Shown here: piece by piece, positions 16,041 to 33,087 of the stretch
Numbering within the stretch: position 1 is the stretch's first letter
Layout of the letters: each line of letters opens with the position of its first letter
Virus record (IMG/VR): IMGVR_UViG_3300017782_000009
DNA length: 64,000 nt
Direction: 5' to 3' (one strand)
Origin: an uncultured virus (IMG/VR IMGVR_UViG_3300017782_000009)
Taxonomy: Duplodnaviria; Heunggongvirae; Uroviricota; Caudoviricetes
Program-made: the position numbers and the translations under genes
The notes under the pieces: generated by a model
What the model was told of the DNA's origin: nothing
Seen by the model: only the letters and a program-made list of their open reading frames with translations
Database searches by the model: none

Positions 16041-16057
16041 CATTAGGAGAAAACAAA

Positions 16058-16378: not shown

Positions 16379-16389
16379 GGAGAATAATA

Positions 16390-17301: not shown

Positions 17302-17313
17302 GGAGTAAGCCTA

Positions 17314-18276
17314 GTGGCAACTTTAAAGAACACAGTTATAAACTCAACTAATCAGACTACCCTTCCCAAAGGTACAACAGCCCAACGCCCTTCTAATCCA
17401 GGCGATGGCGCTATGAGATTTAATACCGACTTAGGATATGTTGAATATTATTTTAAGGGATTTTGGGCAGATGTTAGAACTGGCCAAGGCGCATTTATGC
17501 GTAGAAACTGTGTTATGCATTTAGATGCTACACTACCAGAATCGTATCCAGGTAACGGAAGTGTATGGTATGATCTTTCAGGTAATGCTAATAATATGAA
17601 TGTTGCAACTAATGCTTGGCAAAACAGTTCATTAGGAACAGGCCCGCATATTAAAGGAACTACGACTACCAATGAAGGTGATCAAAATTATGGTATTGAT
17701 GGGTTCTTTGATTTTAATGGTAGTTATGGTCAAGCTAAAACAGCATCTGATATAAGTTTATCAGGAGACGTTACTTACTATTGTGTTTCAAGAGTAAAAA
17801 CTAGCACAAGTGAGTGGCGAACACTTACAAGAAGTTACAGTTCCGACCATCATGTAATTATACGAAGCGGTGCTTATAATGTTGGTATGTACGATAACGA
17901 CAGCGTTGGCTTCATTGACAGCGGCGCAAATCAAGATACACAATTTCCTTGTTACAGTAGTGATCAGTATACTGGTACTACTAGCGGAAGTACTATGAGA
18001 ATGTTTGCTGTTTATGCATGGAGTTGGAGTAATAGTGATAATCCAACATATAAGTTTTTTATTAATGGATATCTTGCAGGAACTATAACAAGCTCAAACG
18101 CAAGATATAATAGAGGATTTGGTTCTTTAGGCGGATATCATAGTGGTAGTACTAGTGTTACTACTGGTAGCCAGTATTGGGGAGATATTAAGTTTTTCTC
18201 AGCACACGCTGATAGACACACCGACGAAGAAATTAGAAACAATACGCACTCTTTAAGACATAGATTTGGAATATAA
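17314..18276 (+). CDS. Fibre-tip protein with ConA/LamG-like lectin domain
   Basis: GTG start with GGGAG SD. N-terminal 'LPKGTTAQRP' anchor, then 'HLDA...SYPGNGSVWYDLSGN', 'FFINGYL' and 'EEIRNN' LamG-like motifs. Confidence 0.65.
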   Translation: MATLKNTVINSTNQTTLPKGTTAQRPSNPGDGAMRFNTDLGYVEYYFKGFWADVRTGQGAFMRRNCVMHLDATLPESYPGNGSVWYDLSGNANNMNVATNAWQNSSLGTGPHIKGTTTTNEGDQNYGIDGFFDFNGSYGQAKTASDISLSGDVTYYCVSRVKTSTSEWRTLTRSYSSDHHVIIRSGAYNVGMYDNDSVGFIDSGANQDTQFPCYSSDQYTGTTSGSTMRMFAVYAWSWSNSDNPTYKFFINGYLAGTITSSNARYNRGFGSLGGYHSGSTSVTTGSQYWGDIKFFSAHADRHTDEEIRNNTHSLRHRFGI

Positions 18277-18279
18277 AAC

Positions 18280-19317
18280 ATGGCACAACTATTAGATACA
18301 AATTTTAATGATACTGGATATTTAAGATTACCTGTAGGAACTGATGCTGATAGACCAGCAAACGAAGTTGGTGCAGTAAGATTAAATAGTAATTTAGGAA
18401 TCGTTGAATATTGGGACGGTTATGCTTGGGCATCTAACAGTGTTGCATTTCCGCATAGAACAATTATTACTACATCATATGTACTTGGTGGATACAAAAG
18501 TGCTGTTGTTTGGAATAATGTTAATAAGTGTTTTAATTCTACTGATACTACAATTAACCTAGGTGACGGTAGTATAGAAAGAGCATTTAACTACCAATGG
18601 GGAGCATGTAGTAAAGATTATGCATATGTCTTTGGTGCAGGTAACGCTCACGTTGCGAGTTCAAACTATGTTATTGCTTTCAATATGAGAACAGAAACTA
18701 ATGCTACTGACATTTCACGTAATTTAAGTTATAATAGAATACGTTTAGGTGGAGTTTTCCAAGAAGATGTATTTGCATTTACTATTGGTGGCGGTTCTGC
18801 TAATATTGAAGAATACAACATGGTTACAAAATCAGTGGTAGCTGTGCTTAGTCCTACGTATACGTCAGCAGATTGTTGGGGTGCTAGTCATGAAACTTAT
18901 GGCATTATGTATACGTCCAACGACAATAGAAACTTTACATTTGCAACAAGAACACTTACATCTAGAGGCGGCACAACAATAAGTAATCACCACCAACAGA
19001 AGTCAATACAGAGTAAACACAACTATGCATGGGCCGGAAACAACGGAAGTTATCAAGGTGGCTATACATATCGAAAAACTAATTTTATTACTAATAGTAC
19101 ATCAGGAACTGTAAATAAACCAATTGGTAATTGCGGTGAAGAGAACTATACAATGGGTCAAGATCACCAGTATATGCTAGGGCAATATAACGGACTACAG
19201 AATAACTTATCACATAGATGGAATTATAATACAGATTCGGGCTTCCAGTTAGGCGCATCAGGCGAACCTAAAGGTAAAGCAGGAATGAGTAGTGCTGTGT
19301 GCGGATGGAACAATTAA
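18280..19317 (+). CDS. Fibre-associated protein, propeller/Kelch-like, paralogue 1
   Basis: N-terminal 'NDTGYLRLPVGT..RP' anchor and G-G/aromatic repeats (YVLGGY, YVFGAG, FTIGGG, YMLGQY). Confidence 0.6.
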   Translation: MAQLLDTNFNDTGYLRLPVGTDADRPANEVGAVRLNSNLGIVEYWDGYAWASNSVAFPHRTIITTSYVLGGYKSAVVWNNVNKCFNSTDTTINLGDGSIERAFNYQWGACSKDYAYVFGAGNAHVASSNYVIAFNMRTETNATDISRNLSYNRIRLGGVFQEDVFAFTIGGGSANIEEYNMVTKSVVAVLSPTYTSADCWGASHETYGIMYTSNDNRNFTFATRTLTSRGGTTISNHHQQKSIQSKHNYAWAGNNGSYQGGYTYRKTNFITNSTSGTVNKPIGNCGEENYTMGQDHQYMLGQYNGLQNNLSHRWNYNTDSGFQLGASGEPKGKAGMSSAVCGWNN

Positions 19318-19328
19318 AGGAATAATAA

Positions 19329-20420
19329 ATGGCAACGTTAAAGAACAGTCACATTAACGATTCAGGATACTTAAGAGTACCCGTTGGAACTACTGGACAA
19401 CGGTCAAACAATCCAACAGGGGCATTACGTTATAACACTGATAAAGGTGCAGTTGAATATTATTCCACACTTCATAATACTGCTTGGCAAGACTTTACAA
19501 TTCCTTGGTATACAAGACAAATTGTTACAGCCGGTTATGTTATGGGTGGATACAAAAGTTCAGCTGTTTGGAAAAACGTAAACAGAACAGACCATTCAAC
19601 AGATACTTCTACTGATTTAGGAGACTTGTTAGATAGAACAGGAAACTATAAAGCTGGTGCTGTAGGACTAGATAGAGCTTTCTATTTTGGAACAACAAAC
19701 GCACATAATGCTAGTGGTAATATCACAAGCGGATTTAGTATGCGTACAGACACAGCATTTGCATGTCAAAATGGTTCTAATATGGCTAATAGTAGAGGTC
19801 ATATGGGAGCAATATTTAAAGAACACTTAGCAACTTGGATTACAGGCGGAGGAAGATCAGACGTTGAACGATTCGATACCGTTACTGAAATGATGTATGC
19901 TAGACCAGGTCTAAGTACTACAGGCGGCCAAGGCGGAGCAACAGCAGGCGGACCATGGGGTATTAGTGCTGAAAACTTTGGAACATGGTATATGGGCGAA
20001 GGTTATAGCGGTACAGTTTATTGCTGGAATTTCCAATTTGCAAGTGAAACACTATTAGCAAGAAGCGGTACACAACCAGGATATCATTTCCAACAAAAAT
20101 CCATAGCTTCTAAATTAGTTCACGGGTATGCCGGAAACAACGGAAGTTGGGCAGGCGGCTATACATATCGTAGGACTAATCATCTTACAGATACAACAGC
20201 AAGCGGAAGTTATATGAATAAAGCATATACTAACTGTGGTGAAGAAAACTACACATTAGGTAATGATAAATCATATATGTTAGGACAATATAACGGACTA
20301 CAGAATAACTTAGCTGCTAAATTTGTATATTCAACAGAAACCCAAACACAGGGTGCATCTTCAATGGAGCCTAAAGGGCCAGCTGGACGAAGTTCAGGTT
20401 TCGGCTCTTGGAGAGCTTAG
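19329..20420 (+). CDS. Fibre-associated protein, propeller/Kelch-like, paralogue 2
   Basis: Collinear with 18280..19317 (GGYKS, QQKSI, AGNNGS, NCGEENYT, YMLGQYNGLQNNL). Confidence 0.6.
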   Translation: MATLKNSHINDSGYLRVPVGTTGQRSNNPTGALRYNTDKGAVEYYSTLHNTAWQDFTIPWYTRQIVTAGYVMGGYKSSAVWKNVNRTDHSTDTSTDLGDLLDRTGNYKAGAVGLDRAFYFGTTNAHNASGNITSGFSMRTDTAFACQNGSNMANSRGHMGAIFKEHLATWITGGGRSDVERFDTVTEMMYARPGLSTTGGQGGATAGGPWGISAENFGTWYMGEGYSGTVYCWNFQFASETLLARSGTQPGYHFQQKSIASKLVHGYAGNNGSWAGGYTYRRTNHLTDTTASGSYMNKAYTNCGEENYTLGNDKSYMLGQYNGLQNNLAAKFVYSTETQTQGASSMEPKGPAGRSSGFGSWRA

Positions 20421-20474: not shown

Positions 20475-21368
20475 ATGACAGACAACAATATTGACAAAAA
20501 GGTCGATAGACAACAACAGTATTTTAGTGATGCACCAACAATGCCACTAACTACTAATGTAGATCAATTATCAGAAAAAGATAAAGAAACATTAAGTTCT
20601 GCTTATAATAAGCAATGGACTAATCCAAAATTCAAAATAAAATGGTTTGTGGGTCAAACACAAATTACCCCATTTGCAAAATTGCGTCAGTGGATGTTAG
20701 AACTTAGAAGTAGAGAAGAAACATTACAACAAATTTTGTACGATAATAAAAAATGGGAAGTTGAACGAGATCGCAACCAATGGATTGCTGATAATACTGA
20801 AGACCCATTTGATAAAAGATTAGCACAAATCGAAGCTGAAAACGAAACTAAGAATTTAGATCAGTCTCGTAAGAAACTACGTGAATATTATCTTGAAAGA
20901 CAAAATCTAATTGACCTTATTAATGAGTTTTTAGAGTCAGACGAAGCATTACTTCCAGATGGTTCAGGTAGAACTTATATGGATATTCTTAACACCGAAG
21001 AAGAAGATATATACGAAGCAGAGTATTGGACAAATAGATTAGCAAAACAAGCATCAACAGATCTAGTATTCTACGGCAGAATTAATACAGGAAACATGGA
21101 TGCTATTTTAAGTATGGCACCAGAACAACAAACCGAAACATTAGGACTTGCCCTTAGTTACGCATCTCAGTTACAAACAGTTCAAACTAAATTGCAACTT
21201 GAAGTGGACGAAAAATTAAAGTTAGGAGCTCAACCAACTAAAGATTTATTAACACCACAGCCGATGCAAGAAAAAATAACCAAGCAAGAAGCAGGACAGC
21301 CGTTCGACAGAGATACTTTTGAGCCAATTAACAACAAGGACGACGACTTTGATTTATATAATTCATGA
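20475..21368 (+). CDS. Hypothetical coiled-coil protein
   Basis: AGGAG SD and TAAATA at 20427-20432; helical E/K/Q-rich sequence. Confidence 0.65.
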   Translation: MTDNNIDKKVDRQQQYFSDAPTMPLTTNVDQLSEKDKETLSSAYNKQWTNPKFKIKWFVGQTQITPFAKLRQWMLELRSREETLQQILYDNKKWEVERDRNQWIADNTEDPFDKRLAQIEAENETKNLDQSRKKLREYYLERQNLIDLINEFLESDEALLPDGSGRTYMDILNTEEEDIYEAEYWTNRLAKQASTDLVFYGRINTGNMDAILSMAPEQQTETLGLALSYASQLQTVQTKLQLEVDEKLKLGAQPTKDLLTPQPMQEKITKQEAGQPFDRDTFEPINNKDDDFDLYNS

Positions 21369-21882
21369 AACTATAGCGAGTAATGATCCTCGCTGGATGC
21401 CTGGGATGGATAGAATCGGGGATTTTTGGAATTATACTATAAGCACAGCACCTGACGGAACTTTTGTTGATTGGTTAAATGGTGCTGTTGTTTCAGAAAA
21501 AGCAGCAAAGTCATATAAGTTTGTAACAGCACTAAACGGAGAAATACCAGTAGCAAAACAAACTGATATATACGAACAAATAGTGCAAGATACTGGTGAT
21601 ACACATACTGAAGAAGGTCCTAAATTCTATTACGAGTTGACTCAACAAGATACTAATAACGGACTTCAGTTTTTAAAGACTGTTATGAATTTGCATATTA
21701 AAAATAAATTAGATGCGAACAATGGATACATTCCTGCATTAACTAAAATGGGCAATGAAGTTACTACATTAGACGAAGCTCAGCGTTTAATGTATAATTA
21801 CTTTGAGTGTAATTTTCCTTCGACTAATTTAACTCCCCGTACCCCAACATTTAAAGTTAATTGGGCTGAAAAAGAAACATAA
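21349..21882 (+). CDS. Hypothetical protein, probable TTG start at 21349
   Basis: AAGGA at 21336-21340 precedes an in-frame TTG at 21349 (MIYIIHET...), shortening the overlap with the upstream gene. Confidence 0.55.
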   Translation: MIYIIHETIASNDPRWMPGMDRIGDFWNYTISTAPDGTFVDWLNGAVVSEKAAKSYKFVTALNGEIPVAKQTDIYEQIVQDTGDTHTEEGPKFYYELTQQDTNNGLQFLKTVMNLHIKNKLDANNGYIPALTKMGNEVTTLDEAQRLMYNYFECNFPSTNLTPRTPTFKVNWAEKET

Positions 21883-21888: not shown

Positions 21889-21917
21889 TTGACAGAGATC
21901 GCATTATATGCTATACT
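21889..21917 (+). promoter_or_regulatory. Sigma70-type promoter
   Basis: TTGACA (21889-21894), 17-nt spacer, TATACT (21912-21917), with an extended -10 TG. Confidence 0.8.
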
Positions 21918-21951
21918 AAGTATAAAATATAGCTATACTAGTGAGACATGA

Positions 21952-23622
21952 ATGCAAAAAATATTTAGTGTACCTTTAAACCCTAAACTTTCTCCTGAAC
22001 AATTTCAGGAGTATTATGATTTTTTAAAGACGTACAAACACCTTATATACGATGTATACTTTACAAGTAGAATACCGCCTTTTGTGCAAGATGCAATGGG
22101 TGATATTTTCATGCATAATGAAGATTATTCATATGCAATTAATACAGCATTGTATATTCAACAAGAAATAGGTATACCAGTTAGTGCTACATTTAATAAT
22201 ACTACAGTACCTCCAACACAATCTAATCTAGATACACTTATTAGAAACTTTAAACCGTTGTATGATGCAGGTGTAAGAACTGTAACTATTCCGCATACAC
22301 ATTGGATGGCAACAGGACAAATTAAAAAAGCATTTCCTGAATTACAAGTTAAAAATACAATTTTAAGAGATGTGCGTACTGCCAGTGAAATAGTTAATCT
22401 CGCTAAAGTAGGATTTGATTACATTAATCTTGATAGAGATTTAATGCGTGATAGAGATACATTATTACGTTTGAAAGAGGCAAAAGATTGGATTAAAGTT
22501 AATTTAGGGAAAGAAATAAGGTATAGTTTACTTGCTAATGAAGGATGTTTAGGAAACTGTCCAATGATGGTTGAACATTTTGAGTTTAATAATACAAGAC
22601 AAGATCCAACACCGCAATACTTTAATGATCCTATTAGTCGTGTTAGTTGCCCGAAATGGGACGTATTAGATCCTTCAGTTCATTTAAAAACGGCAGACCT
22701 TCCACCGTGGAAAGAAGACTGGGAAGAATTTTTAAACGACTTAGGTATTGATGTATTTAAAATGCACGGACGTGAAGCAATACCAAGACTTTACGAAACA
22801 ATGGAAATAATTCGTAAATGGGATAGAGACGAAGAAATTGTTGCAGCAGGATTTGAAACATATCTTGAAGAAACAAATTTAAAAGACAAGCCTATTAATA
22901 TATGGCGTAACAAAATTAAAAATTGTAAATTTGATTGTTGGGAATGTCAATATTGTGATAAAATTTATAAGGCTAAGTCAGACTTAGATCATAGTGATAT
23001 TATTAAACATGTAGCATCAGTTATTGCCGATAGCGGAGTACCTAAGATAAAAATTGATGTGCCAGGATTAACTAGTCCAAGAGTACAAACAGTATTAAAT
23101 GGTATTGCACAGGGAGTTGGCAGTTACTTAGAAATTGGCTCATACTTAGGTGCTACAATGTGTTCAGTTATTAAAGATAACCCTATAAATGCTATTGCTA
23201 TTGATCAATGGGAAGAACAAATTCAACCCCAAAAAGACGAAACACTTCCGCCAAACAATCTTGAAGAATTTAAAAAGAACATTGAAAAGTATCAACCTCA
23301 GTCAGGAGGTGTAACTGTAATTAATGCTGATATGATGTCAGTTGATACAACTCCTTGGCAAAAGCAAGTACAGATGTTCTTCTATGATGGCCCTCACGAT
23401 GCTAAAAGTACACGCGATGCTGTTATACATTATTGGAATACATTTGCAAATGAGGTTGTTTTAATATTTGACGATGCTAATTGGGAAGGAGTTGTTGAAG
23501 GCGCAAGAGAAGCAATTAACACCTGTGAAGGATTAGTAACGTATGAGAAGATATTACTAAACAGTGAAGAGAATCCAAAAGAATGGTGGAACGGATTATA
23601 CATATTGGTTGTTAGAACATGA
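21952..23622 (+). CDS. Peptidase-U32-family (Fe-S) domain fused to a class I SAM methyltransferase (Methyltransf_24-like)
   Basis: N-terminal 'INLDRDL', 'LLANEGCLGNCP', 'VFKMHGRE' and 'CKFDCWECQYC'. C-terminal 'YLEIGSYLG', 'FFYDGPH' and 'LIFDD'. Confidence 0.7.
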   Translation: MQKIFSVPLNPKLSPEQFQEYYDFLKTYKHLIYDVYFTSRIPPFVQDAMGDIFMHNEDYSYAINTALYIQQEIGIPVSATFNNTTVPPTQSNLDTLIRNFKPLYDAGVRTVTIPHTHWMATGQIKKAFPELQVKNTILRDVRTASEIVNLAKVGFDYINLDRDLMRDRDTLLRLKEAKDWIKVNLGKEIRYSLLANEGCLGNCPMMVEHFEFNNTRQDPTPQYFNDPISRVSCPKWDVLDPSVHLKTADLPPWKEDWEEFLNDLGIDVFKMHGREAIPRLYETMEIIRKWDRDEEIVAAGFETYLEETNLKDKPINIWRNKIKNCKFDCWECQYCDKIYKAKSDLDHSDIIKHVASVIADSGVPKIKIDVPGLTSPRVQTVLNGIAQGVGSYLEIGSYLGATMCSVIKDNPINAIAIDQWEEQIQPQKDETLPPNNLEEFKKNIEKYQPQSGGVTVINADMMSVDTTPWQKQVQMFFYDGPHDAKSTRDAVIHYWNTFANEVVLIFDDANWEGVVEGAREAINTCEGLVTYEKILLNSEENPKEWWNGLYILVVRT

Positions 23623-24206
23623 TACATAACTTTTTTAGTACTCCTATATACATTGATGCTGATCAAGACAATACAGTTGAATCAGAATTATCATCAATTA
23701 TACCTAGATTAGAGTTTAAGAACGATTGGCAACCTCATAATGATACAGCAAATACTACGTTTATACCAAATAAACAAACTAATATAATAGAAGATTATAA
23801 GTTACTTAATACTAAAAAATTAATTCTTAAGCACGTAAAAAAGTATCTTAATGATGCACAACAGTCTATCGAAGATGAGTATCAAATAGTAGAGTCGTGG
23901 TTAAATATATTTGAGAAAGATAATAACATTGGACTTCATGAACACGGGTATCAACCTAATACAGTAAGTGGAGTATACTATCATAAAGCCGATAAAGATT
24001 GCGGAATGATTTCTTTTAAAAGCCCAAATCCGTTTGTTATTTCTTTCCCTCATAGATGTGAACAGTATAGTAACATTGTTAGAGTTCCACCAGAGCAAGG
24101 AATGATAATATTATTTCCTAGTTGGTTACAACATAAAGTGGAGCCAAACAAAGCAGATAAAGAGAGAGTTTCTTTATCTTTTAACATAGAATTTTTATAT
24201 AGGTAG
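23619..24206 (+). CDS. 2OG-Fe(II) oxygenase (TIGR02466-like)
   Basis: WLN...HEH...SGVYY...LFPSWLQHKV...RVSLSFN; ATGA overlap with the upstream gene. Confidence 0.8.
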   Translation: MIHNFFSTPIYIDADQDNTVESELSSIIPRLEFKNDWQPHNDTANTTFIPNKQTNIIEDYKLLNTKKLILKHVKKYLNDAQQSIEDEYQIVESWLNIFEKDNNIGLHEHGYQPNTVSGVYYHKADKDCGMISFKSPNPFVISFPHRCEQYSNIVRVPPEQGMIILFPSWLQHKVEPNKADKERVSLSFNIEFLYR

Positions 24207-24210
24207 AAGA

Positions 24211-25725
24211 ATGTTTTTAAATAAAGTAAAAAAAATTGTAATATTCGGTGGCGGAACAAGTGGATGGTTATCTGCAGCCTATCTAAGAAATCAATTACAA
24301 GTTCCGGCTGAAATTGTATTAATTGAAGACTCAGATGCAGGACCAATTGGTGTTGGTGAAGGTACACAACCATTAACAGCAGAATTTTTATGGCGTTGCG
24401 GAATACCACCTCACAAGTGGATGAATGCTAGTGATGCATCATTTAAGTATGGTGTTGAATGCATTGGGTGGAACGATGAGCCTTATTTTGTTGACAATGA
24501 CACGGCTGTAAATAGTGTAATTGCTGAGGACTTTTTCTACTCAGACTATTTTATAGACAAACCTTATTCAGAATTAGCAGAATGGCATCCTGCATATCGA
24601 CTTGCTAAAGCAAATAAATCTTTAAAGTATGAAGATTATCTAGATGTTAATACAGGTATGGGACCAAGTGGCTTTGGCTCTGTACATTTTTCTGCATATC
24701 AAATTATTAAAACAATCAAAGATCTAATAATTGACGATATTACATATATTGATACTAAGATTACAAGTATTACAAAAAATGAAAATGGTATTGAATATTT
24801 AATAAATGAAGAAGGCGAAAAATATACAGGTGATTTATTTTTAGACTGTACAGGATTTAGTAGTTTATTACTTGAAAAAGAGTTGGGATCAAAATGGCAG
24901 TCATTTAACGATTTAGGATTACTTACTGATAGAGCTGTAATGATACAGACACAATATACTAATCCCCAAGAAGAATGTCATCCTTATACAAAAGCAACTA
25001 CAATGGATGCAGGCTGGTGTTTTACTATTCCTATCTTTACAAGAGTTGGTAACGGATACATATATTCAAGTAAACATATTAGCGACGAAGATGCCGAAGC
25101 AGAACTAAGAAAACATTTAGGTGAGTATGTTGCACCAGCTAAACACTTAAAGATGAAATGTGGTGCCCATCATCAGATTGCTTTAAAAAATGTAGTAGGA
25201 GTTGGTCTTAGTGCAGGCTTTGTTGAGCCATTAGAAGCAACAGGAATTACATTTACAACAGCACTAGTACATAGTTTAACTGATTTATTAAATGCAAATA
25301 ATAATGTTTGGTCTGACCAAGCCAAACATTTAATGAATCAAGGCTTTGGTGAAATGTCTGCAGAAATATTTACATTTGTTTGGGCACATTATCACTATAG
25401 TACAAGAAGTGATACAGAATTTTGGAAAGAAATTCGTAGCCAAAAAATTGAAGATAGACCAAGATTTGTAAAAGAAATACTTGGAGCATTTTTACCTCAA
25501 CCACAAAGATTTTTACATTTAACACCAAGCAGTATGTTCTGTGTTACACAATGGTTTAGTATGCTTCATGCTGGCGGAGCATATGAAGGAACAGAGTCTG
25601 TTTTAACTGACAAGCAAAAACAATATGCTGAGTATTTTTGTAAATCGCATACCGCTAGAGTAGAACTAGCAGAAGATATGTTTTTAAATCATTATGATTA
25701 TCTAAAAGAATGGTATGAAAGATGA
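24211..25725 (+). CDS. Flavin-dependent halogenase (tryptophan halogenase/PrnA family)
   Basis: GGGTSG FAD motif, IGVGEGT, 'ASFKYG' (catalytic-Lys position), FLDCTGF, GWCFTIP (WxWxIP variant) and GFVEPLEATG. Confidence 0.85.
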   Translation: MFLNKVKKIVIFGGGTSGWLSAAYLRNQLQVPAEIVLIEDSDAGPIGVGEGTQPLTAEFLWRCGIPPHKWMNASDASFKYGVECIGWNDEPYFVDNDTAVNSVIAEDFFYSDYFIDKPYSELAEWHPAYRLAKANKSLKYEDYLDVNTGMGPSGFGSVHFSAYQIIKTIKDLIIDDITYIDTKITSITKNENGIEYLINEEGEKYTGDLFLDCTGFSSLLLEKELGSKWQSFNDLGLLTDRAVMIQTQYTNPQEECHPYTKATTMDAGWCFTIPIFTRVGNGYIYSSKHISDEDAEAELRKHLGEYVAPAKHLKMKCGAHHQIALKNVVGVGLSAGFVEPLEATGITFTTALVHSLTDLLNANNNVWSDQAKHLMNQGFGEMSAEIFTFVWAHYHYSTRSDTEFWKEIRSQKIEDRPRFVKEILGAFLPQPQRFLHLTPSSMFCVTQWFSMLHAGGAYEGTESVLTDKQKQYAEYFCKSHTARVELAEDMFLNHYDYLKEWYER

Positions 25726-26303
25726 CATCAATATTAACGGCTAAGTTTTTTCATAACGAAAATGTAGGTACAGAAGTACAAGTATCTCAACTACTTGATG
25801 ATATCAATAGTGTTTATGATGCAACACCTTCAACAGATGCTACTAATTTAGACTGTTGGAGATCTTCGCATGTTTATGAAAATATAAGTTGGCTAACTGA
25901 TGCAATTATAGATCTAGTAAACGAAAATGTTGATTACTATAGTAAATTAGATAGCATTTTTTCAAAACTAATGACAAAACATAATCGTAAATATATTTTA
26001 ACTTACTGGACTAACGTAAATAACCCAGGAAGTAGAAATGTAATGCATAGTCATAAAGACGCAATATTTTCTGGTGTATACTATGTAAAAGGTGCAGATA
26101 CAGGAGACTTAAGAATAGTTAATCCAGCTAACGTACTAGGAGATTGCGACAGTGCTTCACCATTTGTTAGAGACTTTTATTTTACTCCAGCAGATAAAGA
26201 TCTAATAATGTGGCCAAGTTGGCTACCTCATGAAGTAGAAACAAATAAACATGCAAGTAAAAATAGAATTAATATAGCATTTGATATTAGGATAGCAAAA
26301 TGA
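25722..26303 (+). CDS. 2OG-Fe(II) oxygenase (TIGR02466-like), second copy
   Basis: WTNVN...HSH...FSGVYY...WPSWLPHEV...RINIAFD; ATGA overlap. Confidence 0.8.
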   Translation: MTSILTAKFFHNENVGTEVQVSQLLDDINSVYDATPSTDATNLDCWRSSHVYENISWLTDAIIDLVNENVDYYSKLDSIFSKLMTKHNRKYILTYWTNVNNPGSRNVMHSHKDAIFSGVYYVKGADTGDLRIVNPANVLGDCDSASPFVRDFYFTPADKDLIMWPSWLPHEVETNKHASKNRINIAFDIRIAK

Positions 26304-27037
26304 AAAAGATACAATTTTTCTCAACAATACCAGGTGTAGCAGAAGCATGTCCAATTATACCTGCAAGTAAGTATATTACTAACTGGCAAAAACGAGCTAG
26401 AGAAGACTACAAAGCATCGTCAAAAAGATCAAAAGGTAGGATGGATCATATTGCTCAATGCCCGGGTATATTTGATTTAAACAAACATGGATACATCTTA
26501 CCAATGTGGCATGATGTTTTAATTGAGACTATGGGAGACGGCAAAGAGTTTAAGTGGACAGTCCCAACATCAGATATTCACGAGCTTGCTGAAGGTAAGG
26601 AAATTATTAGTAAGCAACAAACTGGAGTTGAAACACTAATGCCAGTTAAACCTTGGAGCATGACTTCACTAATTAAATTTAACACACCTTGGAACGTTAT
26701 TGCACCTAAAGGTGTTAAATTTATAATGATACCAATTGCATATCCTGATAGTTTTGAGCTAGAAAGTAGTATAGGTATATTAGATCCAAGTGTAAGTACT
26801 GAGTTAAATGTTCAAGCATTTTACAATATTCCTAAAGGAGAATATCTTCTTAAAGCAGGAACACCTTTGGCACAAATTATACCATTATCAGAGCAACAGT
26901 TTGAGTTAGTAGTAAGAGATAAAAATGCAAGTGACGAGCTTTGGTTAAAAAAGAAACAATTTATTATGAACTTTACATTTAAAATTAAACGTAACTTAGT
27001 TCAAGATATATACAATAAACATTTTGGAGGAAAATAA
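26300..27037 (+). CDS. Hypothetical protein, possibly with a dUTPase-like/DUF6065-like beta fold
   Basis: 'CPGIFD...GYILP.W.D', 'KFNTPW...PKG' and 'LKAGTPLAQIIP'; ATGA overlap. Confidence 0.5.
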   Translation: MKKIQFFSTIPGVAEACPIIPASKYITNWQKRAREDYKASSKRSKGRMDHIAQCPGIFDLNKHGYILPMWHDVLIETMGDGKEFKWTVPTSDIHELAEGKEIISKQQTGVETLMPVKPWSMTSLIKFNTPWNVIAPKGVKFIMIPIAYPDSFELESSIGILDPSVSTELNVQAFYNIPKGEYLLKAGTPLAQIIPLSEQQFELVVRDKNASDELWLKKKQFIMNFTFKIKRNLVQDIYNKHFGGK

Positions 27038-27480
27038 TGGCTATTGAAGAATTTGCAACACAAGAGTTGAGCATTTTTACAATTAAGAAAAAAGAAGTAA
27101 AAGACTCCTATACTATGCGTAAGTTCCAACGAGATCGCTTACGATCACAAGTATTATTAACTCAACTATTAGACGAGAAGGATCTTGTTCTCTTTTATAT
27201 CGATGAAGAAGGTATAGAGCAACATACTGTTGCAACTAGAAATTCACATCGCCAGCCTTTAGAAGAAGAACCCATAACAATGGAAGAATATAAAAAGGGT
27301 CCTGTTAAAGAAATTCAACATATTAGTTTTCTTAAAATACCAGGCTATACACCAATGATATTACACGTTGATTGTATTACTAAATTTATTGTAGCATCTC
27401 ATGATATTTACGAAATACTTAATCGTGAAACACCGCCAGAAGATTTGCACGGATCAAACATCAAACAAGATCAAATATAA
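27037..27480 (+). CDS. Hypothetical protein
   Basis: GGAGG SD, TAATG coupling, 147 aa. Confidence 0.6.
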   Translation: MAIEEFATQELSIFTIKKKEVKDSYTMRKFQRDRLRSQVLLTQLLDEKDLVLFYIDEEGIEQHTVATRNSHRQPLEEEPITMEEYKKGPVKEIQHISFLKIPGYTPMILHVDCITKFIVASHDIYEILNRETPPEDLHGSNIKQDQI

Positions 27481-27523
27481 GTAGTCACGTACAGATAAAT
27501 ACTCTATATAAAGGAGTTTTTTA

Positions 27524-28840
27524 ATGGCATCAAATCAAGCACCAGTTGTCGATAGAATTAGAATAATTCCTAGACCTGACGACTTTTTAGATAGAAATGT
27601 TGGTTCTAGTGGTGAAGTATTCTTTAATAAAGCAACAAATTCATTAAGAGTGTACAGTGGCGCAATAGCTGGTGGCTACGAACTAGTTACGTCAGATTTA
27701 GCAAACGTAACTAATGATGCACTACTGACAAAAGCAACTACAGCAGGCCTTGCTAAAACAGATTTAACCAATATTGCTGACAGTGATTTTTTAACAAAAG
27801 CAAACCAAGCAGGAATAACAGCAGGATCAGGCGGAGCAAGTATTGATGTTTCTGCATCGGTTCCTAGTTCACCATCTGAAGGAAGTATTTGGCTTAATAG
27901 TAATACTGGAGCGTTGTATGTTTACATTACTGATGTAGATGGTTCGCAATGGATTCAACCAGTAGTTGGAGTATCCACAGGCGGCGGCAGTGGCGATACT
28001 AATCAAAACGCATTTAGTAACTTTGCAATAACAGGACAATCTACAGTAACAGCTGACACTACAACTGATACAGTTAATTTTGCCGCAGGTTCGGGCATGA
28101 CTATTACTACTAGCGGAGACACTATTACGTTTGCCTCAACAGGCGGCGGTGGAGGCGGAGGCGGAATTGCTTTAACAGATTTATCTATTACTACAGCAAG
28201 TGCAAATGCTACGCCATCATTAGTATATGATGACACTACAGGAGTATTTACATACACGCCACCCGCTATAGACAATTTTATTACAGCAAGTAGTACTGAC
28301 GAGCTTACAAATAAAACAGGAAACATTAGTCAATGGACTAATGATGCAAACTATCTAACTTCAACTGTTGAAACAGATACATTAGATAGTGTAACTGGCA
28401 GAGGTGCTACTACAACTAATGACATCACAGTAGGCGATATAACTGCTGATGCATATATTAATGCAGGCACAGGTTCACCAACATTTACTAGTGCTAGTTC
28501 AATAACACTAACAGCACCAGACGGAGTAATATCAAACGGTGTTTTTGCTCCTAAGTATACTGGACTAATAAAAGGATCAGGTACATTTTCAGTAACTGGC
28601 TCAGGCGTAAGTACTGCTAGTAGTGCTGACAATGGTACAGGTGATTATACTTTAACTTTTACTAATCCCCTTGGCGCTGATACTGACAGTTTTGGAATAG
28701 TAGGAAATGCACAAAATCAATCAGGACCTGCAATGGTATCGTTTGTCAAAACAAGTACTACTGTAATTCGAATATATGTACATGATGCAACTGGCGCCAA
28801 CATAGATGCTGATGTGTTTATTACAATTTATGAGCTGTAA
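27524..28840 (+). CDS. Tail fibre-like protein
   Basis: TAAATA (27496-27501) and AAGGAG SD. T/S/G-rich, with 'PSSPSEGSIWLNS', 'NQNAFSN' and 'YDDTTGVFTYTPP' modules. Confidence 0.7.
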   Translation: MASNQAPVVDRIRIIPRPDDFLDRNVGSSGEVFFNKATNSLRVYSGAIAGGYELVTSDLANVTNDALLTKATTAGLAKTDLTNIADSDFLTKANQAGITAGSGGASIDVSASVPSSPSEGSIWLNSNTGALYVYITDVDGSQWIQPVVGVSTGGGSGDTNQNAFSNFAITGQSTVTADTTTDTVNFAAGSGMTITTSGDTITFASTGGGGGGGGIALTDLSITTASANATPSLVYDDTTGVFTYTPPAIDNFITASSTDELTNKTGNISQWTNDANYLTSTVETDTLDSVTGRGATTTNDITVGDITADAYINAGTGSPTFTSASSITLTAPDGVISNGVFAPKYTGLIKGSGTFSVTGSGVSTASSADNGTGDYTLTFTNPLGADTDSFGIVGNAQNQSGPAMVSFVKTSTTVIRIYVHDATGANIDADVFITIYEL

Positions 28841-28842
28841 CG

Positions 28843-30840
28843 ATGTCTGAAAGAGAATATGTTGTTGTTGTTAATCGAGGTGAAGACTTAGAGGCATTTG
28901 ATGCCGAACTAGAAGCATCAACAGGTTCTGGCCCAATACCAAATAGATCAGTAGAAGTTGCTAATCCTAGACCTGGATCAGATCGCATGACTCACTGGAT
29001 GCTCACTGACGACGAAGCAGAAGAATTAAAAAAAGATCCACGAGTATATTGTGTAGAAATACCTGTCGATCAAAGAGACGATATTCAAATTGGTCACGCA
29101 GCTAGACAAACAGGAACATTTTATAGAGGTTCAAATTTACAAGCAAGTTATGTGAATTGGGGCTTAAGAAGATGTACAGCAAATGATAACTCAGCATTTG
29201 GATTCCAAACTACACTAACTGGAGATTACGATTATGCTATTGACGGTACTGGTGTTGATGTTGTAATACAAGACAGTGGTATACAAGCAGATCACCCAGA
29301 ATGGGTTAGTACTAAAAATGAACTCATTGATACTGTACAAGGCGGTGTTACTACATTTAATTTTATTGATAACAACATAGCAACTAATGATATATACGTA
29401 CCATATTATCAATTTGCAAATCCTACAGCTAATTATATTGCTTCAATGACAGGAACACCCTGGGCAAACGGACAATATGACGGTGCCGAATTTTTAATAC
29501 GATTTGTTTTAGCAGACGGCAAGACTATAGAAAGAACTAGAATATTCGGAGGTATAGGAAACGGTACAGTAACTGCAGGAAAAAATACTTTCGAACTTAG
29601 TCTAGCAGGTACAATACATATTGAACAAACTGACGAAGATTTAAGACTTGCTTTTACTACTGGTGGCTATACTCAAAACGGAGTAATACAGTTATGGTTA
29701 AAAGCCGGACAGACTAGAATGCGTCAAATAGATTGGTACGGTGCAAGCGGACTTAGTGGTACACAAAATGCAAATCATTATAGAGATGCTGACGGCCACG
29801 GAACACATGTTGCAGGTATAGCAACAGGTAAAACATATGGTTGGGCCAAAGGTGCTCATGTTTATTCACAAAAGTTAGCAGGGCTAGAAACATTATCAGG
29901 AACTGACGGAACAGGAATTGCATCATCAGATGCATTTGATGCTATAAGATTATGGCATAACAATAAACCAATAGACCCAGTTACTGGTGCAAAACGACCA
30001 ACAGTTGTTAATATGAGTTGGGGGTACAGTAGCATTATAACTACTACTCCATCAAGTGGATCTTATAGAGGTACTCCTTGGACATGGGGATCTACATATA
30101 CAGATCGATATGTATTATGGGCAGATACTGGTATACCAACAGCAACTGAAGGTGGTGGCTTTAGAATGCCAGCCCGTGTAGGATCAATTGATGCTGAAAT
30201 TGAAGCCATGATTGATGCCGGCATACACGTTTGTATTGCTGCAGGCAATACCCCAATGAAACATGATGTTTCAAATGGATTAGATTATAATAATGTTGTA
30301 GTGTTTAATGCAATATCTTACGAGTACCATAGAGGAAGTTCACCATATAGTGACCGTGCATTAAATGTAGGTAATATTGACAGTAGTATTCAAGCGTCAG
30401 GAGGAAGCTATTTTGATAAAACAGCAACATCGTCTACTAGAGGTCCTGCTGTAAATATATGGGCACCAGGAAATGGAGTAGTAAGCACAGCAAGTAATAT
30501 AGGTGATGTTTTTTATACTACAATAGATTACCCAGACGATGATAATTACAAAATTATGAACATTGGAGGTACTTCTATGGCGTCTCCTCAAGCAGCAGGC
30601 CTTGTAGCATTAAAGGCACAATCATTACCAACAGCAAGTCCAGATAAATTGCGTCAAGATATTATTAATGATGCAAAAGATGTAGTATATAACACAGGTT
30701 CTAGTACTGATTATGATAACTTAAATCAGAGCTTGTTAGGTTCAGAACCTAACATAATGTTTTCCAAGTATGCGGTATATAATCCAATGTCTTATACAGG
30801 ACCTCTAACAATTCGTAACGTCGGACCTCGATTGCGATAA
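28843..30840 (+). CDS. Subtilisin-like serine protease (S8) with N-terminal propeptide
   Basis: Triad motifs 'VVIQDSG', 'HGTHVAG' and 'GTSMASP'; oxyanion 'AAGN'; VVNMSWG. Confidence 0.9.
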   Translation: MSEREYVVVVNRGEDLEAFDAELEASTGSGPIPNRSVEVANPRPGSDRMTHWMLTDDEAEELKKDPRVYCVEIPVDQRDDIQIGHAARQTGTFYRGSNLQASYVNWGLRRCTANDNSAFGFQTTLTGDYDYAIDGTGVDVVIQDSGIQADHPEWVSTKNELIDTVQGGVTTFNFIDNNIATNDIYVPYYQFANPTANYIASMTGTPWANGQYDGAEFLIRFVLADGKTIERTRIFGGIGNGTVTAGKNTFELSLAGTIHIEQTDEDLRLAFTTGGYTQNGVIQLWLKAGQTRMRQIDWYGASGLSGTQNANHYRDADGHGTHVAGIATGKTYGWAKGAHVYSQKLAGLETLSGTDGTGIASSDAFDAIRLWHNNKPIDPVTGAKRPTVVNMSWGYSSIITTTPSSGSYRGTPWTWGSTYTDRYVLWADTGIPTATEGGGFRMPARVGSIDAEIEAMIDAGIHVCIAAGNTPMKHDVSNGLDYNNVVVFNAISYEYHRGSSPYSDRALNVGNIDSSIQASGGSYFDKTATSSTRGPAVNIWAPGNGVVSTASNIGDVFYTTIDYPDDDNYKIMNIGGTSMASPQAAGLVALKAQSLPTASPDKLRQDIINDAKDVVYNTGSSTDYDNLNQSLLGSEPNIMFSKYAVYNPMSYTGPLTIRNVGPRLR

Positions 30841-30861
30841 ATATAAAAAAGGAACTATATA

Positions 30862-32457
30862 ATGGCTTTAAATTTTCCAATCAGTCCAAACATAGACGAT
30901 ACATATACAGATGGTACAACCACATGGAAGTGGGACGGGTCTGTATGGAACATTGTTGACGGCGCAGACGGAGTTGCATTATTTAAAACTGTTGCAGGTG
31001 ATACTGGCAGTGCAACAGCAACAACAGCCACAGACACAATTACTATTGCAGGCGGTACTGATATTGCTAGTAGTGTAGTAGGAAAAACTCTAACAATTAA
31101 TTATACAGGTTCTGCATCTAATCCAAATTTATTTTCAAGTATAGGTACAGATGACGGAACATTAAATGCAACAACACCTACTAGTACTGTTGATATTATC
31201 GGCGGCACAAATATAACTACACAAAATTCAACAGACACTAATGACATTGAAATTAATGTAAGTCCATTTAGCATAGACTTTTTGTCAGACGTTGACACAA
31301 CAACATCACCACCAAGTACAGGTAGTGTAATAAAATGGGATGGTGCAAAATGGGCACCAGGAACTGATGCTACTACCGGTGGTGGCGGCACTGATGCTGA
31401 TACACTTGATGGTCAAGATGGATCATACTATTTAAACTATAATAATCTTTCTAATACACCGAGTGTATTAACATTAACTGACCTAAGTATTGGTAATGAA
31501 TTAACTGCCTCAGGTGATGGAGCAATTAGTTATGATAATACTACAGGTGTGTTTAGATTTACACCTCCAGATCTTAGCAGTTACTTAACTAGTGTACCGG
31601 CACAGTCATTTAGTAGTTTAACAGGTAAACCAACAACACTTGCAGGCTATGGCATTACAGATGCATTTGACGGTGCTTTTAGTTCACTTACTAGCAAACC
31701 AACAACACTTGCAGGATACGGTATTACAGATGCAGCATTAGCATCAAGCATACCAACAGATTTAACAGACTTAAACATTATAGATGGTACAGCAAATCAA
31801 GTACTAACAACTAACGGTGCAGGCGGATTTAGTTTCCAAGACATAAGTGCTAGTTCAGGCGAAACAAACCAAAACGCATTTAGTAACGTTGCTGTAGCAG
31901 GACAAACAACAGTAGCTGCAGAATCAAAAACTGATACACTTACACTTGTAGGCGGTACTAGTATTAATGTAACCACTGATGCCAATACTGACTCAGTAAC
32001 TATTGCGTATAATGGTGCATCAGGTGTTACTGAATTTTCAAATTTAACTGATGTAAATGATGCAAACTTTTTAACAGTTGATAGAATTTTTGAACATGCC
32101 GCAACTACGTTCACTGTAGACAACATTGGTGCTACATCTTATACATTTAACCCGCATTATGCAGGAAATAATCCATCAATCTATTTAATATCCGGACATA
32201 CATATGCATTTAATTTATTAGGTGTAGGCGGTCATCCGTTTGAAATACAAGATGCATCTTTGAATGCACTTACAACAAACTTACTACATGTAGCTGAAGA
32301 CGGTACAGTAAGTGCTGACAGTGATGCACAGGGTCAAGACGACGGAACATTGTATTGGAGAATTCCAGAAAATACTAGTGGTAGTTTTGCATATCAGTGT
32401 ACACTACATTCTGCTATGGTTGGAAGCATTACTGTTAAAAGACTAAGCAGTCTTTAA
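30862..32457 (+). CDS. Tail fibre-like protein with C-terminal cupredoxin-like domain
   Basis: TAAATA (30838-30843); two KPTTLAGYGITDA repeats; ends 'GHPF...YQCTLHSAMVGSITV'. Confidence 0.7.
   Translation: MALNFPISPNIDDTYTDGTTTWKWDGSVWNIVDGADGVALFKTVAGDTGSATATTATDTITIAGGTDIASSVVGKTLTINYTGSASNPNLFSSIGTDDGTLNATTPTSTVDIIGGTNITTQNSTDTNDIEINVSPFSIDFLSDVDTTTSPPSTGSVIKWDGAKWAPGTDATTGGGGTDADTLDGQDGSYYLNYNNLSNTPSVLTLTDLSIGNELTASGDGAISYDNTTGVFRFTPPDLSSYLTSVPAQSFSSLTGKPTTLAGYGITDAFDGAFSSLTSKPTTLAGYGITDAALASSIPTDLTDLNIIDGTANQVLTTNGAGGFSFQDISASSGETNQNAFSNVAVAGQTTVAAESKTDTLTLVGGTSINVTTDANTDSVTIAYNGASGVTEFSNLTDVNDANFLTVDRIFEHAATTFTVDNIGATSYTFNPHYAGNNPSIYLISGHTYAFNLLGVGGHPFEIQDASLNALTTNLLHVAEDGTVSADSDAQGQDDGTLYWRIPENTSGSFAYQCTLHSAMVGSITVKRLSSL
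31627..31734 (+). repeat. Tandem phage-fibre repeat (KPTTLAGYGITDA x2)
   Basis: aaaccaacaacacttgcagg...attacagatgca occurs twice, 69 nt apart. Confidence 0.8.
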
Positions 32458-32712
32458 ATCATTAACTATAGTAGTTAATCTCTTACGTATCTCAATTATT
32501 CGTATTCTATTTTCGTGTAATGAACGAGGATCAATATATCCGTTATTTGCAGGATCGTGACCTGCGTCTATTTGTGCTGCTTCAGATGCTAATTCTTTTA
32601 ATAACTTATTACATTCTTCTTTAAGTGCAGGATTTGATACTAAAGAAAGTTCTTGAGTAAAATATTTTAAGTCTTTTTGAAATTTTGGAAGTTCACTAAA
32701 CTTTAGATTGTT
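32443..32712 (-). CDS. Hypothetical protein (94-aa ORF; likely start MNNLKF at 32712)
   Basis: GAGG upstream of ATG 32712 on the minus strand; last gene of the minus-strand operon. Confidence 0.5.
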   Translation of the reverse strand, partial: NNLKFSELPKFQKDLKYFTQELSLVSNPALKEECNKLLKELASEAAQIDAGHDPANNGYIDPRSLHENRIRIIEIRKRLTTIVNDLKTA

Positions 32713-33079: not shown

Positions 33080-33087
33080 TTTAATAC

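Follow-up and report, generated by a model that had tools for sequence, protein, structure and literature searches.

A cassette of six tightly coupled genes, all reading in the same direction, spans positions 21952-27480 of a 64-kb stretch of DNA (the window, to which all positions refer) from an uncultured virus, IMG/VR record IMGVR_UViG_3300017782_000009. The cassette is one coupled unit, and a single clade of uncultured marine myoviruses keeps its gene order. It is best explained as an insertion in the variable region that follows the tail-fibre genes, and as a mosaic of blocks that recombine among marine myoviruses. These blocks would be a barrel-methyltransferase fusion with an upstream partner (phrog_1409), a halogenase, oxygenase-like proteins of PF13759, a protein of the gp43 type (the block common to the largest number of variants) and a dispensable small protein. 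We read the cassette, tentatively and at somewhat less than an even chance, as a tailoring operon whose enzymes would act on a shared aromatic substrate, probably a peptide or protein.

Organization and Conservation of the Cassette

The six open reading frames (ORFs) lie on the + strand. Gene 1 (21952-23622, 556 amino acids) joins a Cys-rich triosephosphate isomerase (TIM) barrel (residues 1-365) to a Methyltransf_24 domain (about 366-556) and belongs to phrog_1458 and T4-GC 354. Gene 2 (23619-24206, 195 amino acids) is a putative 2-oxoglutarate (2OG)-Fe(II) oxygenase of the double-stranded β-helix (DSBH) type (PF13759, TIGR02466), gene 3 (24211-25725, 504 amino acids) a flavin-dependent halogenase of the tryptophan type, and gene 4 (25722-26303, 193 amino acids) a second putative 2OG oxygenase of PF13759. 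Gene 5 (26300-27037, 245 amino acids) has the dUTPase/dCTP-deaminase fold and belongs to phrog_7084, the Syn9 gp43 family; gene 6 (27037-27480, 147 amino acids) is small, fast-evolving and without a family. Three of the junctions are 4-nt overlaps, one is a 4-nt gap and one a 1-nt overlap, which bears out the tight coupling described in the initial annotation. GC content is 0.326-0.327 at 22001-26000 and 0.346 at 26001-28000, as against 0.373-0.388 at 16001-20000 and 28001-32000.

The best 80 of 294 confirmed gene 1 loci in IMG/VR, with 67 distinct gene 1 DNA sequences, fall into a close class (gene 1 identity at least 60%; 57 loci, 55 of them with at least 6 kb downstream) and a distant class (55-58%; 23 loci, 19 with at least 6 kb). 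In the close class a halogenase gene is found in 54/55 loci, starting no more than 800 nt from the end of gene 1, and a gene 4-like oxygenase and gene 5 are each found in 53/55. The order halogenase, oxygenase, gene 5 is kept in 51/55 loci. In the distant class gene 5 occurs in 1/19 loci, and the halogenase, the gene 4-like oxygenase and the conserved order in 0/19. One distant-class locus (L064) has a gene for a DUF401 membrane protein after gene 1.

A second collection was built around gene 5 (the best 80 of 216 IMG/VR loci). A halogenase lies within 3.5 kb of gene 5 in 51/62 loci with enough upstream DNA, and the other 11 of the 62 have no halogenase and run gene 1, (oxygenase), gene 5. Gene 1 is upstream of gene 5 in all 55 loci with at least 6.5 kb of upstream DNA. 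With gene 5 found both with and without a halogenase, gene 5 and the oxygenase therefore form a block common to gene 1-type and halogenase-type cassettes; gene 4 stands directly 5' of gene 5 in most cassette variants.

The blocks separate among cultured cyanophages. Genome-wide, P-SSM4 and S-CAM4 have gene 1 and no halogenase, while in Syn9 and S-RIM44 two or three halogenases occur along with the gene 5 family, and gene 1 is missing. After their fibre genes Syn9 (gp41-gp52) and S-RIM44 carry halogenase, halogenase, the gp43 family and then oxygenases; Syn9 gp41-gp45 and S-RIM44 gp165-gp162 match genes 3, 5, 2 and 4. Independent scatter of the genes among relatives had been named beforehand as the outcome that would speak against a joint pathway, and it is seen in part: the blocks come apart outside the clade, and inside it the order is kept.

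These observations bear on the view that there is no shared pathway at all, and that independent accessory genes have gathered in a hyperplastic region under one promoter, the oxygenases serving, for example, 2-oxoglutarate levels or DNA repair. The blocks do occur apart in other phages, and 2OG-related roles have been proposed for cyanophage oxygenases (Sullivan et al. 2010, PMC3037559). Some members are also dispensable, a gene 2-like ORF lying between gene 1 and the halogenase in only 18/55 close loci and a gene 6 homologue (27-66% identity) being present in 30/55, with both at 0/19 in the distant class. Set against this are the overlaps, which imply translational coupling across the six genes, the retention of order while gene 1 protein identity drops to 61%, and the recurrence of gene 5 together with an oxygenase in the company of either gene 1 or halogenases, which suggests a functional rather than an accidental linkage. 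We consider independent accessory genes an unlikely explanation.

Gene 1, a Cysteine-Rich Barrel Fused to a Methyltransferase

Gene 1 matches phrog_1458 over nearly its full length (E 1.4e-171), and residues 1-345 match phrog_36869, whose members are stand-alone proteins. The fusion is very abundant (1987 proteins at E <=0.001 among 6366 candidates), and 126 cultured phage records match gene 1. Full-length relatives occur in cyanomyoviruses at 41-46% identity, a match of 49% identity and 77% coverage in P-SSM3, and barrel-only relatives in three records of Ralstonia jumbo phages. When residues 1-365 were compared with 1.84 billion cluster representatives, 313 relatives were found at E <=0.001, many of them stand-alone proteins of 330-380 amino acids. 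The 14 forms fused to a methyltransferase group together (Shimodaira-Hasegawa-like approximate likelihood ratio test, SH-aLRT, 99) in a quick tree built from 67 barrel sequences. The rows of that tree were chosen by hand: 39 aligned relatives, 14 bacterial ORFs from 13 loci (two from L087) and 14 phage loci, with L100-L177 left out.

Seven Cys residues of the barrel (C199, C203, C233, C325, C329, C332 and C335) are invariant in an alignment of 39 sequences that are 25-47% identical, and E197, H209, K270 and R274 are nearly so. An AlphaFold model made on this alignment has a predicted local distance difference test score (pLDDT) of 91.4. VIA-align, run against a library of 48,161 chains (one representative per PDB sequence cluster), places the U32 protein Mk0906 (5d88_A) first, with Z 16.4, a root-mean-square deviation of 3.2 and 226/247 residues aligned; assorted TIM barrels fill the following 49 rows, at Z <=12.8. 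In Foldseek, too, 5d88 comes out on top (E 4.5e-7), with a narrow lead over other barrels (2e-6). The look-alikes in the ESM Atlas are viral and bacterial clusters with PF01136 in 20% of members, a weak agreement with U32. A profile of the gene 1 family searched against PDB sequences gives no match for the barrel. The barrel may bind an Fe-S cluster, and by analogy with U32 proteins, whose hydroxylation is prephenate-dependent and O2-independent, it may be a hydroxylase.

The only domain found by a Pfam scan of gene 1 is Methyltransf_24 (PF13578; residues 393-508, E 9.3e-9, 36.6 bits with a cut-off of 26.3), and an NCBIfam scan gives no match. PF13578 is present in 119 of 120 gene 1 homologues among the matches listed. 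The domain has a glycine-rich motif of the E-I-G type, in which E394 and G396 are invariant in the alignment; it is in keeping with the glycine-rich consensus for binding of S-adenosylmethionine (SAM). In the PDB, its best profile match is YrrM (5zw3), at a weak E of 0.2, and in this weak alignment the acidic D and D-N positions of YrrM are matched by acidic residues in gene 1. Many homologues carry the JGI name 'predicted O-methyltransferase YrrM', which is an automatic label. No U32 C-terminal, RNA-binding or other nucleic-acid-binding domain was detected in gene 1 with Pfam.

In P-SSM4 and other cyanophage records (L001 8887-10605) the stretch that tblastn aligns with gene 1 begins about 45 codons 5' of the annotated PSSM4_035 start and overlaps the annotated end of the previous gene. 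The deposited starts of the cyanophage homologues are therefore probably too short.

A Constant Partner Upstream of Gene 1

The phrog_1409 gene (20475-21368, + strand) encodes an acidic, helical-looking protein of 297 amino acids upstream of gene 1. It occupies this place in 70/70 IMG/VR loci with at least 2.5 kb of upstream DNA, and also in P-SSM4 and S-CAM4. The interval given in the initial annotation excluded this constant partner of gene 1; it began at 21889, where the -35 hexamer of a sigma70-like site starts and no coding sequence does. Between the two genes is an ORF at 21319-21882 (+ strand; 187 amino acids from a TTG start, with an internal ATG the likelier start) that belongs to no family and is weakly conserved, at 26-44% identity, in most close loci. 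Further upstream are two paralogous fibre-like genes of phrog_1417 on the + strand (18280-19317, E 9e-46, and 19329-20420, E 4e-52), and genes of this family are upstream of gene 1 in 69/70 loci. Structure prediction of a complex between the gene 1 barrel and the phrog_1409 protein returned a score of 0.00, or 'no answer', and bears on neither side.

In Ralstonia phage RP12 a phrog_1409 gene (E 4e-17) directly abuts the barrel gene, and a gene for a DUF401/CitMHS-like membrane protein comes next. The triad of phrog_1409, barrel gene and DUF401/CitMHS-like membrane protein is common to RP12 (L085 5335-8056) and a class of marine phage contigs (L064 8710-12593). A phrog_1417 profile has no match in RP12, so the fibre-like linkage does not extend to that phage; a tblastn match at E 0.003 was dropped.

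Bacterial Relatives of the Barrel

Full-length stand-alone homologues of the barrel (38-43% identity) have been found in 13 loci of species-representative bacterial genomes, from Campylobacterota, Syntrophaceae/Smithella and Bacillota metagenome-assembled genomes (MAGs); a 14th locus, L099, is a fragment of 36 residues. Neighbours were assigned with Pfam. Three of the loci have radical SAM/SPASM genes: L086 has radical SAM, a 292-residue protein, barrel and radical SAM/SPASM, L087 has barrel, radical SAM/SPASM and barrel, and L090 has TPR, a 300-residue protein, barrel, DUF6445 and radical SAM/SPASM. The 292-residue (L086, 7102-7980) and 300-residue (L090, 1722-2624) proteins, conserved upstream partners of the barrel, are homologous (E 3e-39), with a Cys-rich motif at the C-terminus and no Pfam family. 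Other barrels stand with export genes. For example, L088 has barrel, OEP, a C39-peptidase ATP-binding cassette (ABC) exporter, HlyD and an M23 peptidase (L092 has an identical ORF layout, compared by layout only), and L093 has a C39-ABC exporter, HlyD, a two-component system and the barrel. In L097 the order is GLUG protein, sulfotransferase, ATP-grasp, GNAT, barrel, TauE and CysD-like and CysNC-like/3'-phosphoadenosine 5'-phosphosulfate (PAPS) genes; the barrel proteins of L094, L096 and L098 are near-identical to that of L097, and Pfam covers one neighbour, in L094 only. In L089 the barrel is at the end of a type III Csm operon, and the neighbours in L091 and L095 are uninformative.

As judged from the neighbouring domains, these contexts resemble clusters for peptide maturation and export, of the kind that make peptides synthesized on ribosomes and modified after translation (RiPPs). 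Two of their elements recur in phages: S-CAM4 has a DUF6445 gene after gene 1, and in the phage locus L018 gene 1 adjoins a radical SAM gene. A phrog_1409 profile has no match in the bacterial barrel loci, and hhalign of phrog_1409 with the bacterial 300-residue neighbour gives a probability of 0.1, so that the two are taken as unrelated. Tandem barrel genes are seen in L087 (a Campylobacterales MAG) and L094 (a Syntrophaceae MAG), and are reminiscent of the paired U32 proteins UbiU/UbiV and TrhP1/TrhP2.

The Halogenase

Gene 3 matches PF04820 (Trp_halogenase) at E 2.1e-86, and its PDB matches include a Trp 5-halogenase (E 3.6e-59) and VirX1 of cyanophage Syn10 (6qgm, E 6.1e-54). A GGGTSG motif (GxGxxG) is present, the Lys in SFKYG aligns with TYKLA, and the Glu lies in FVEPLEATG, which aligns with FVEPLESTG of the Trp 5-halogenase. 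As to class, the initial assignment of a flavin halogenase is upheld. Flavin-dependent halogenases are also defined by a WxWxIP motif, from which gene 3 departs: it has GWCFTIP where the solved enzyme has GWIWTIP, the second Trp being replaced by Phe. Gene 3 matches 78 cultured phage records, at identities of 33% or less.

The catalytic Lys is K79 in VirX1, and VirX1 is described as trimeric, its active site being large, open and able to take bulky substrates; the review's account of it lists no natural substrate (PMC8407142). By analogy, the open trimeric site and the lack of a listed natural substrate would fit a bulky substrate here as well.

The same enzyme can be cited for a different reading, in which the cassette would tailor a small molecule: a free host metabolite, amino-acid-derived or phenolic/quinone-like, would be halogenated, hydroxylated and methylated during infection. 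Ubiquinone precursors are O-methylated after their hydroxylation by UbiU/UbiV. The hydroxylation itself is the work of these two U32 proteins (PMC6747719), VirX1 halogenates many free aromatics in vitro (PMC8407142), and Iyer et al. 2010 (PMC2938197) suggested that phage clusters supply steps for halogenated, hydroxylated secondary metabolites derived from amino acids. The transporter-like DUF401/CitMHS gene that follows the barrel gene in RP12 and L064 would suit such a role. However, the cassette has no scaffold-building gene, as had been noted at the outset, and without a known host there is no metabolite to put forward. The genes around the bacterial barrels look peptide-type and not like metabolite pathways, and the dUTPase-fold hub protein would have no obvious role. 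A free metabolite as the substrate is rather unlikely in our estimate.

The Oxygenase-Like Proteins

Genes 2 and 4 both pass PF13759 (2OG-FeII_Oxy_5), and the initial assignment of two 2OG oxygenases was broadly right as to class, DSBH oxygenase-like. Gene 2 scores 77.5 bits (E 1.1e-21; cut-off 27) and 83.3 bits with TIGR02466 (cut-off 62.5), while gene 4 scores 58.4 bits with PF13759 (E 1e-15), above the cut-off, and 58.2 bits with TIGR02466, below 62.5. Their mutual identity is 21%. In 19 PF13759 relatives H107-x-H109...H172 and R183 (gene 2 numbering) are invariant; 2OG-Fe(II) oxygenases are marked by an HxD/E...H iron triad and an Arg for binding 2OG. PADLOC gives weak '2OG, Cas-associated' matches for gene 2 and a match at 0.005 for gene 6. 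No match was found by hhalign between the PF13759 alignment and two DUF6445 proteins.

The dUTPase-Fold Protein and Gene 6

The two proteins first left as unknowns have fared differently: gene 5 can be assigned to a fold and to phrog_7084 (E 1.6e-40), and gene 6 is still without a family. The model of gene 5 has a pLDDT of 86.5. Its top 22 rows in VIA-align are all dUTPases, dCTP deaminases and herpesvirus dUTPase-like proteins (Z 10.1-5.5, then about 3), and Foldseek gives a dUTPase-superfamily match at E 8e-5. H50 and C54 are invariant in 22 homologues. Gene 5 itself has no match in Pfam or NCBIfam, and a profile of the 22 homologues matches no PDB chain at E <=10. Among cultured phages it matches 15 records, all of them cyanophages; the S-CREM1 homologue is annotated 'triphosphate nucleotidohydrolase'. 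Gene 6 has no Pfam or PHROG match and no tblastn match in phages. Its Atlas model, of low confidence (pLDDT 0.57), resembles viral clusters bearing WYL_2 (template modelling scores 0.63 and 0.48), a weak resemblance.

Gene 5 raises the possibility that pyrimidines, in nucleotides, tRNA or DNA, are what the cassette modifies. Gene 5 would bind a pyrimidine nucleotide, gene 1 would make a 5-hydroxy- and then a 5-methoxypyrimidine, in the manner of TrhP and TrmR at U34 of tRNA, and the halogenase and oxygenases would act on the same ring. The fold of gene 5 and the S-CREM1 annotation speak for this, and so does the finding that YrrM is the best, though weak, PDB sequence match of the methyltransferase domain. 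We know of no flavin halogenase that acts on pyrimidines. In addition, by sequence no dUTPase of Pfam or the PDB matches gene 5, the YrrM match is not significant, PF13759 is no family of the TET/JBP type, the bacterial neighbours of the barrel are peptide-type and not RNA-type, and gene 1 is without a detected nucleic-acid-binding domain. The U32 proteins TrhP and RlhA are needed for 5-hydroxyuridine (ho5U) and 5-hydroxycytidine (ho5C), and YrrM/TrmR methylates ho5U (PMC6599085), a precedent in favour. Taken together, modification of pyrimidines appears quite improbable.

Transcription Signals

A sigma70-like promoter (21889-21917, + strand; TTGACA, 17 nt, TATACT, with TG before the -10) is found inside the 69-nt gap 5' of gene 1. 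It agrees with the sigma70-like pattern at 11/12 consensus positions. By itself this match is weak, because promoter-like sites in the region are fewer than in shuffled sequences (56 vs 72.4 +/- 7.7). The strict pattern occurs at only two places in the 64 kb, 21889-21917 and 37117-37145. The second site (TTGACA, 17 nt, TATAAT) precedes an ORF at 37173-37700 that has weak PHROG matches to proteins like deoxynucleoside monophosphate (dNMP) kinase and thymidylate synthase. An exact TTGACA-17-TATAMT is kept in seven related loci (L005-L009, L020 and L021), and a looser -35/-10 pattern in 20/42 distinct upstream regions of the close class and 3/16 of the distant class. In 12/42 close-class upstream regions there is also a hairpin that overlaps the -10 and is followed by a T-run.

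A different motif, GATAAATA, stands 25-33 nt before six structural gene starts (7668, 27524, 30862, 41410, 44364 and 44876) and before none of genes 1-6. The copy at 27494-27501 (+ strand), late-promoter-like and 29 nt before the next fibre-like gene (27524), marks the 3' end of the unit. This motif, which we take to resemble the T4 late promoter, is likely a late-promoter variant of this phage lineage; the canonical T4 late promoter, TATAAATA, is not enriched (2 sites vs 10.8 expected). As gene 1 is preceded by a sigma70-like site and GATAAATA is confined to the flanking structural genes, the six-gene unit is therefore probably transcribed separately from its fibre-gene neighbours, and it is possibly expressed early. 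The six copies of GATAAATA are at 7640, 27495, 30837, 41380, 44331 and 44848; others are seen at 42128 and 48267, and overall the motif lies 11-33 nt 5' of structural gene starts.

Four seawater RNA libraries, each from a different study, contain contigs that agree with parts of 20475-21882 and of genes 1, 3, 5 and 6, differing at 0-1 positions; two of these contigs start at 21947 and 21950. Parts of the cassette have no such contigs, for example 23702-24463.

Proposed Function

In the tailoring of a peptide or protein, the reading that we tentatively prefer, an existing electron-rich aromatic ring would be decorated. The ring would probably be on a peptide or protein residue made during infection, and not on a metabolite made de novo. 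Gene 1 would convert C-H to C-OH and then to C-OCH3, hydroxylation preceding methylation, by analogy with TrhP1/TrhP2 and YrrM/TrmR and with UbiU/UbiV. The halogenase would act on the activated aromatic ring, and the DSBH proteins of genes 2 and 4 could carry out further oxidations at other positions. The dUTPase-fold protein might be a carrier, a substrate, a scaffold or a nucleotide-binding enzyme. In B. subtilis the yrrMNO operon offers a parallel for the gene 1 chemistry, with YrrM/TrmR and two U32 proteins (TrhP1/TrhP2) making 5-methoxyuridine (mo5U; PMC6599085). The lean toward a peptide or protein is due mainly to the bacterial contexts of the barrel, which look like peptide maturation and export, and Iyer et al. 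2010 argued for peptide modification in such neighbourhoods (PMC2938197).

A number of observations weigh against this proposal. No substrate or precursor gene has been identified, and the bacterial contexts come from only 13 full-length MAG loci, some of them inferred from ORF layout (L092, L094, L096 and L098). Gene 1 and the halogenase are independent in cultured cyanophages and in 19/19 distant-class loci, so conservation within the clade may reflect shared ancestry rather than functional coupling. The predicted fold of gene 5 would suit a nucleotide ligand just as well. With an early-type promoter, the cassette would be expressed apart from the late fibre genes, and the RNA-library contigs are compatible with DNA carry-over and prove neither transcription nor its ends. 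In the PF13759 proteins the putative metal motif is HxH...H, with His as the second ligand, and not HxD/E...H; among the PDB matches there is no characterised member of the family, the nearest solved structures, 2rg4 and 3bvc, both being listed as 'uncharacterized protein'.

The assignment of the barrel is a further difficulty. With the Pfam model for Peptidase U32, PF01136, gene 1 gives no match at E <=0.01; of 39 barrel family members one is matched (E 0.033), and 28 more distant members have no Pfam match at all. In the nearest virus record PF01136 has no match, while the same model matched in 10/14 control genomes. U32 proteins have four conserved Cys, spaced CX6CX15CX3/4C, that bind a 4Fe-4S cluster (PMC6747719). 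In gene 1 the spacing is C199-x3-C203-x29-C233, with a C-terminal CX3CX2CX2C (C325-C335). The relationship to U32 is therefore one of predicted fold: the barrel is 'U32-like by fold' and no member of the U32 family. The label of a U32-methyltransferase fusion stands as to the methyltransferase domain and as to a predicted fold nearest U32 Mk0906, and fails on PF01136 and on the Cys spacing.

A bolder version of the proposal, which we think unlikely, is that the gene 1 barrel founds an unrecognised U32-like Fe-S family that modifies peptides or proteins, and that the phage cassette would decorate the aromatic residues of a phage protein with methoxy, hydroxy and halogen groups (the phrog_1409 or phrog_1417 proteins, or gene 5). 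If this were true, it would be a phage-borne system of post-translational tailoring that yields halogenated virion or effector proteins.

Comparison with Known Systems

The closest precedent is the neighbourhood gp41-gp54 of Syn9, described in 2010 by Iyer et al. (PMC2938197), and the initial view of an undescribed system has to be withdrawn to that extent. As in the cassette, genes for a halogenase, for DSBH oxygenases and for a dUTPase-fold protein of the gp43 family, whose Cys (C54 here) is conserved, lie on the same strand, in the same location after tail-fibre genes. Syn9 has two halogenases and ten oxygenases where the cassette has one and two, and no JmjC-type member was detected in the latter. 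Syn9 and S-RIM44 are without the U32-like/methyltransferase fusion that heads the cassette, Syn9-type proteins are only about 30% identical to those encoded here, and the carrier here is by its terminase no cyanophage.

VirX1 (Syn10, 6qgm) belongs to the same Pfam family as gene 3, keeps the GxGxxG, Lys and Glu, and is encoded near a gp43-family gene, as gene 3 is near gene 5. Identity is about 31%, and bacterial Trp 5-halogenases score slightly better. The C-terminal 90 residues of gene 3 are unaligned, and therefore substrate or halide preference cannot be transferred from VirX1.

The U32 systems (TrhP1/TrhP2 with TrmR/YrrM, and UbiU/UbiV) share with gene 1 a TIM barrel nearest Mk0906, with a conserved Glu and Cys at a strand end (E197, C199, C203), and the pairing with a methyltransferase of COMT/YrrM type, which is separate there and fused here. 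Besides the lack of a PF01136 match and the other Cys spacing, gene 1 differs in having phage structural and tailoring genes as neighbours instead of translation genes.

The fusion itself has been listed in cyanomyoviruses as T4-GC 354, 'hypothetical protein' (Sullivan 2010, supplementary file 3; PSSM4_035, P-HM2 gp101). There it has the same upstream phrog_1409 (T4-GC 353) and phrog_1417, with 41-49% identity to gene 1 and no halogenase in the genome (P-SSM4, S-CAM4). The gene 1 homologue is followed by 'denV' in P-SSM4, and by DUF6445, a fibrinogen-like gene and one oxygenase in S-CAM4. Halogenases and 2OG oxygenases of cyanophages have long been noted (PMC2984593, PMC3037559, PMC10452541). 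In the open-access library that was searched no paper was found with U32 or peptidase U32 in phage, cyanophage or RiPP contexts. What is already known is thus the halogenase/dioxygenase/dUTPase-fold neighbourhood; what appear to be new are the union of the fusion protein with a halogenase block, phrog_1409 as a universal partner, and the RiPP-like settings in which bacteria carry the barrel.

Of the unexplained accessory genes in ocean phages, those for halogenases and oxygenases rank with the commonest, and VirX1, the sole characterised one, is without a known natural substrate. The cassette places such genes in a combinatorial toolbox that includes an abundant fusion whose annotation so far is only 'hypothetical' or 'methyltransferase'. 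Should the barrel prove to be an Fe-S hydroxylase of peptides, O2-independent chemistry of the U32 type would extend beyond RNA and quinones, and the neighbouring genes would supply concrete, testable candidate substrates. Even if this reading fails, the annotation and boundaries of the unit are corrected.

The Carrier Phage and Other Genes of the Window

Elsewhere in the window there are genes for giant fibre proteins, for neck proteins, for a sheath protein of 1087 amino acids, and for tube, terminase and gp32-, UvsX- and UvsY-like proteins. The large terminase (46679-48259) is nearest to that of Pseudomonas PA5oct-like jumbo phages, at 53% identity, and not to those of cyanophages; a cyanophage carrier was rejected for this reason. 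Related contigs reach 245-309 kb. The carrier is probably an uncultured marine jumbo-type myovirus of the T4 superfamily. One gene 1 homologue is found in a MAG labelled Methylophagaceae, where a binning artefact is possible.

The cassette had been described as flanked by fibre-type genes on both sides, and this applies to 16390-20420 and 27524-32457; it does not apply to the adjoining genes at 20475-21368 (phrog_1409) and 21319-21882. Three successive fibre-like proteins at 17314-20420 have a common N-terminal motif of about 45 residues and bodies rich in Gly, Asn and Tyr, the last two being the phrog_1417 paralogues. Just 3' of the cassette, a subtilase of 665 amino acids (28843-30840; Peptidase_S8, E 2.6e-26; phrog_9158) is encoded between two fibre-like genes. 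Between the fibre and neck modules, on the - strand (32696-33597), are a cupin gene of the 'cysteine dioxygenase'-like type (phrog_7851) and a NUDIX hydrolase gene. Farther away, 53316-57665 holds three consecutive methyltransferase-like genes (phrog_8156 twice, phrog_24759), then a heptose-kinase/adenylyltransferase-like gene and a gene for a phrog_28018 protein of 580 amino acids; this may be a second modification cluster.

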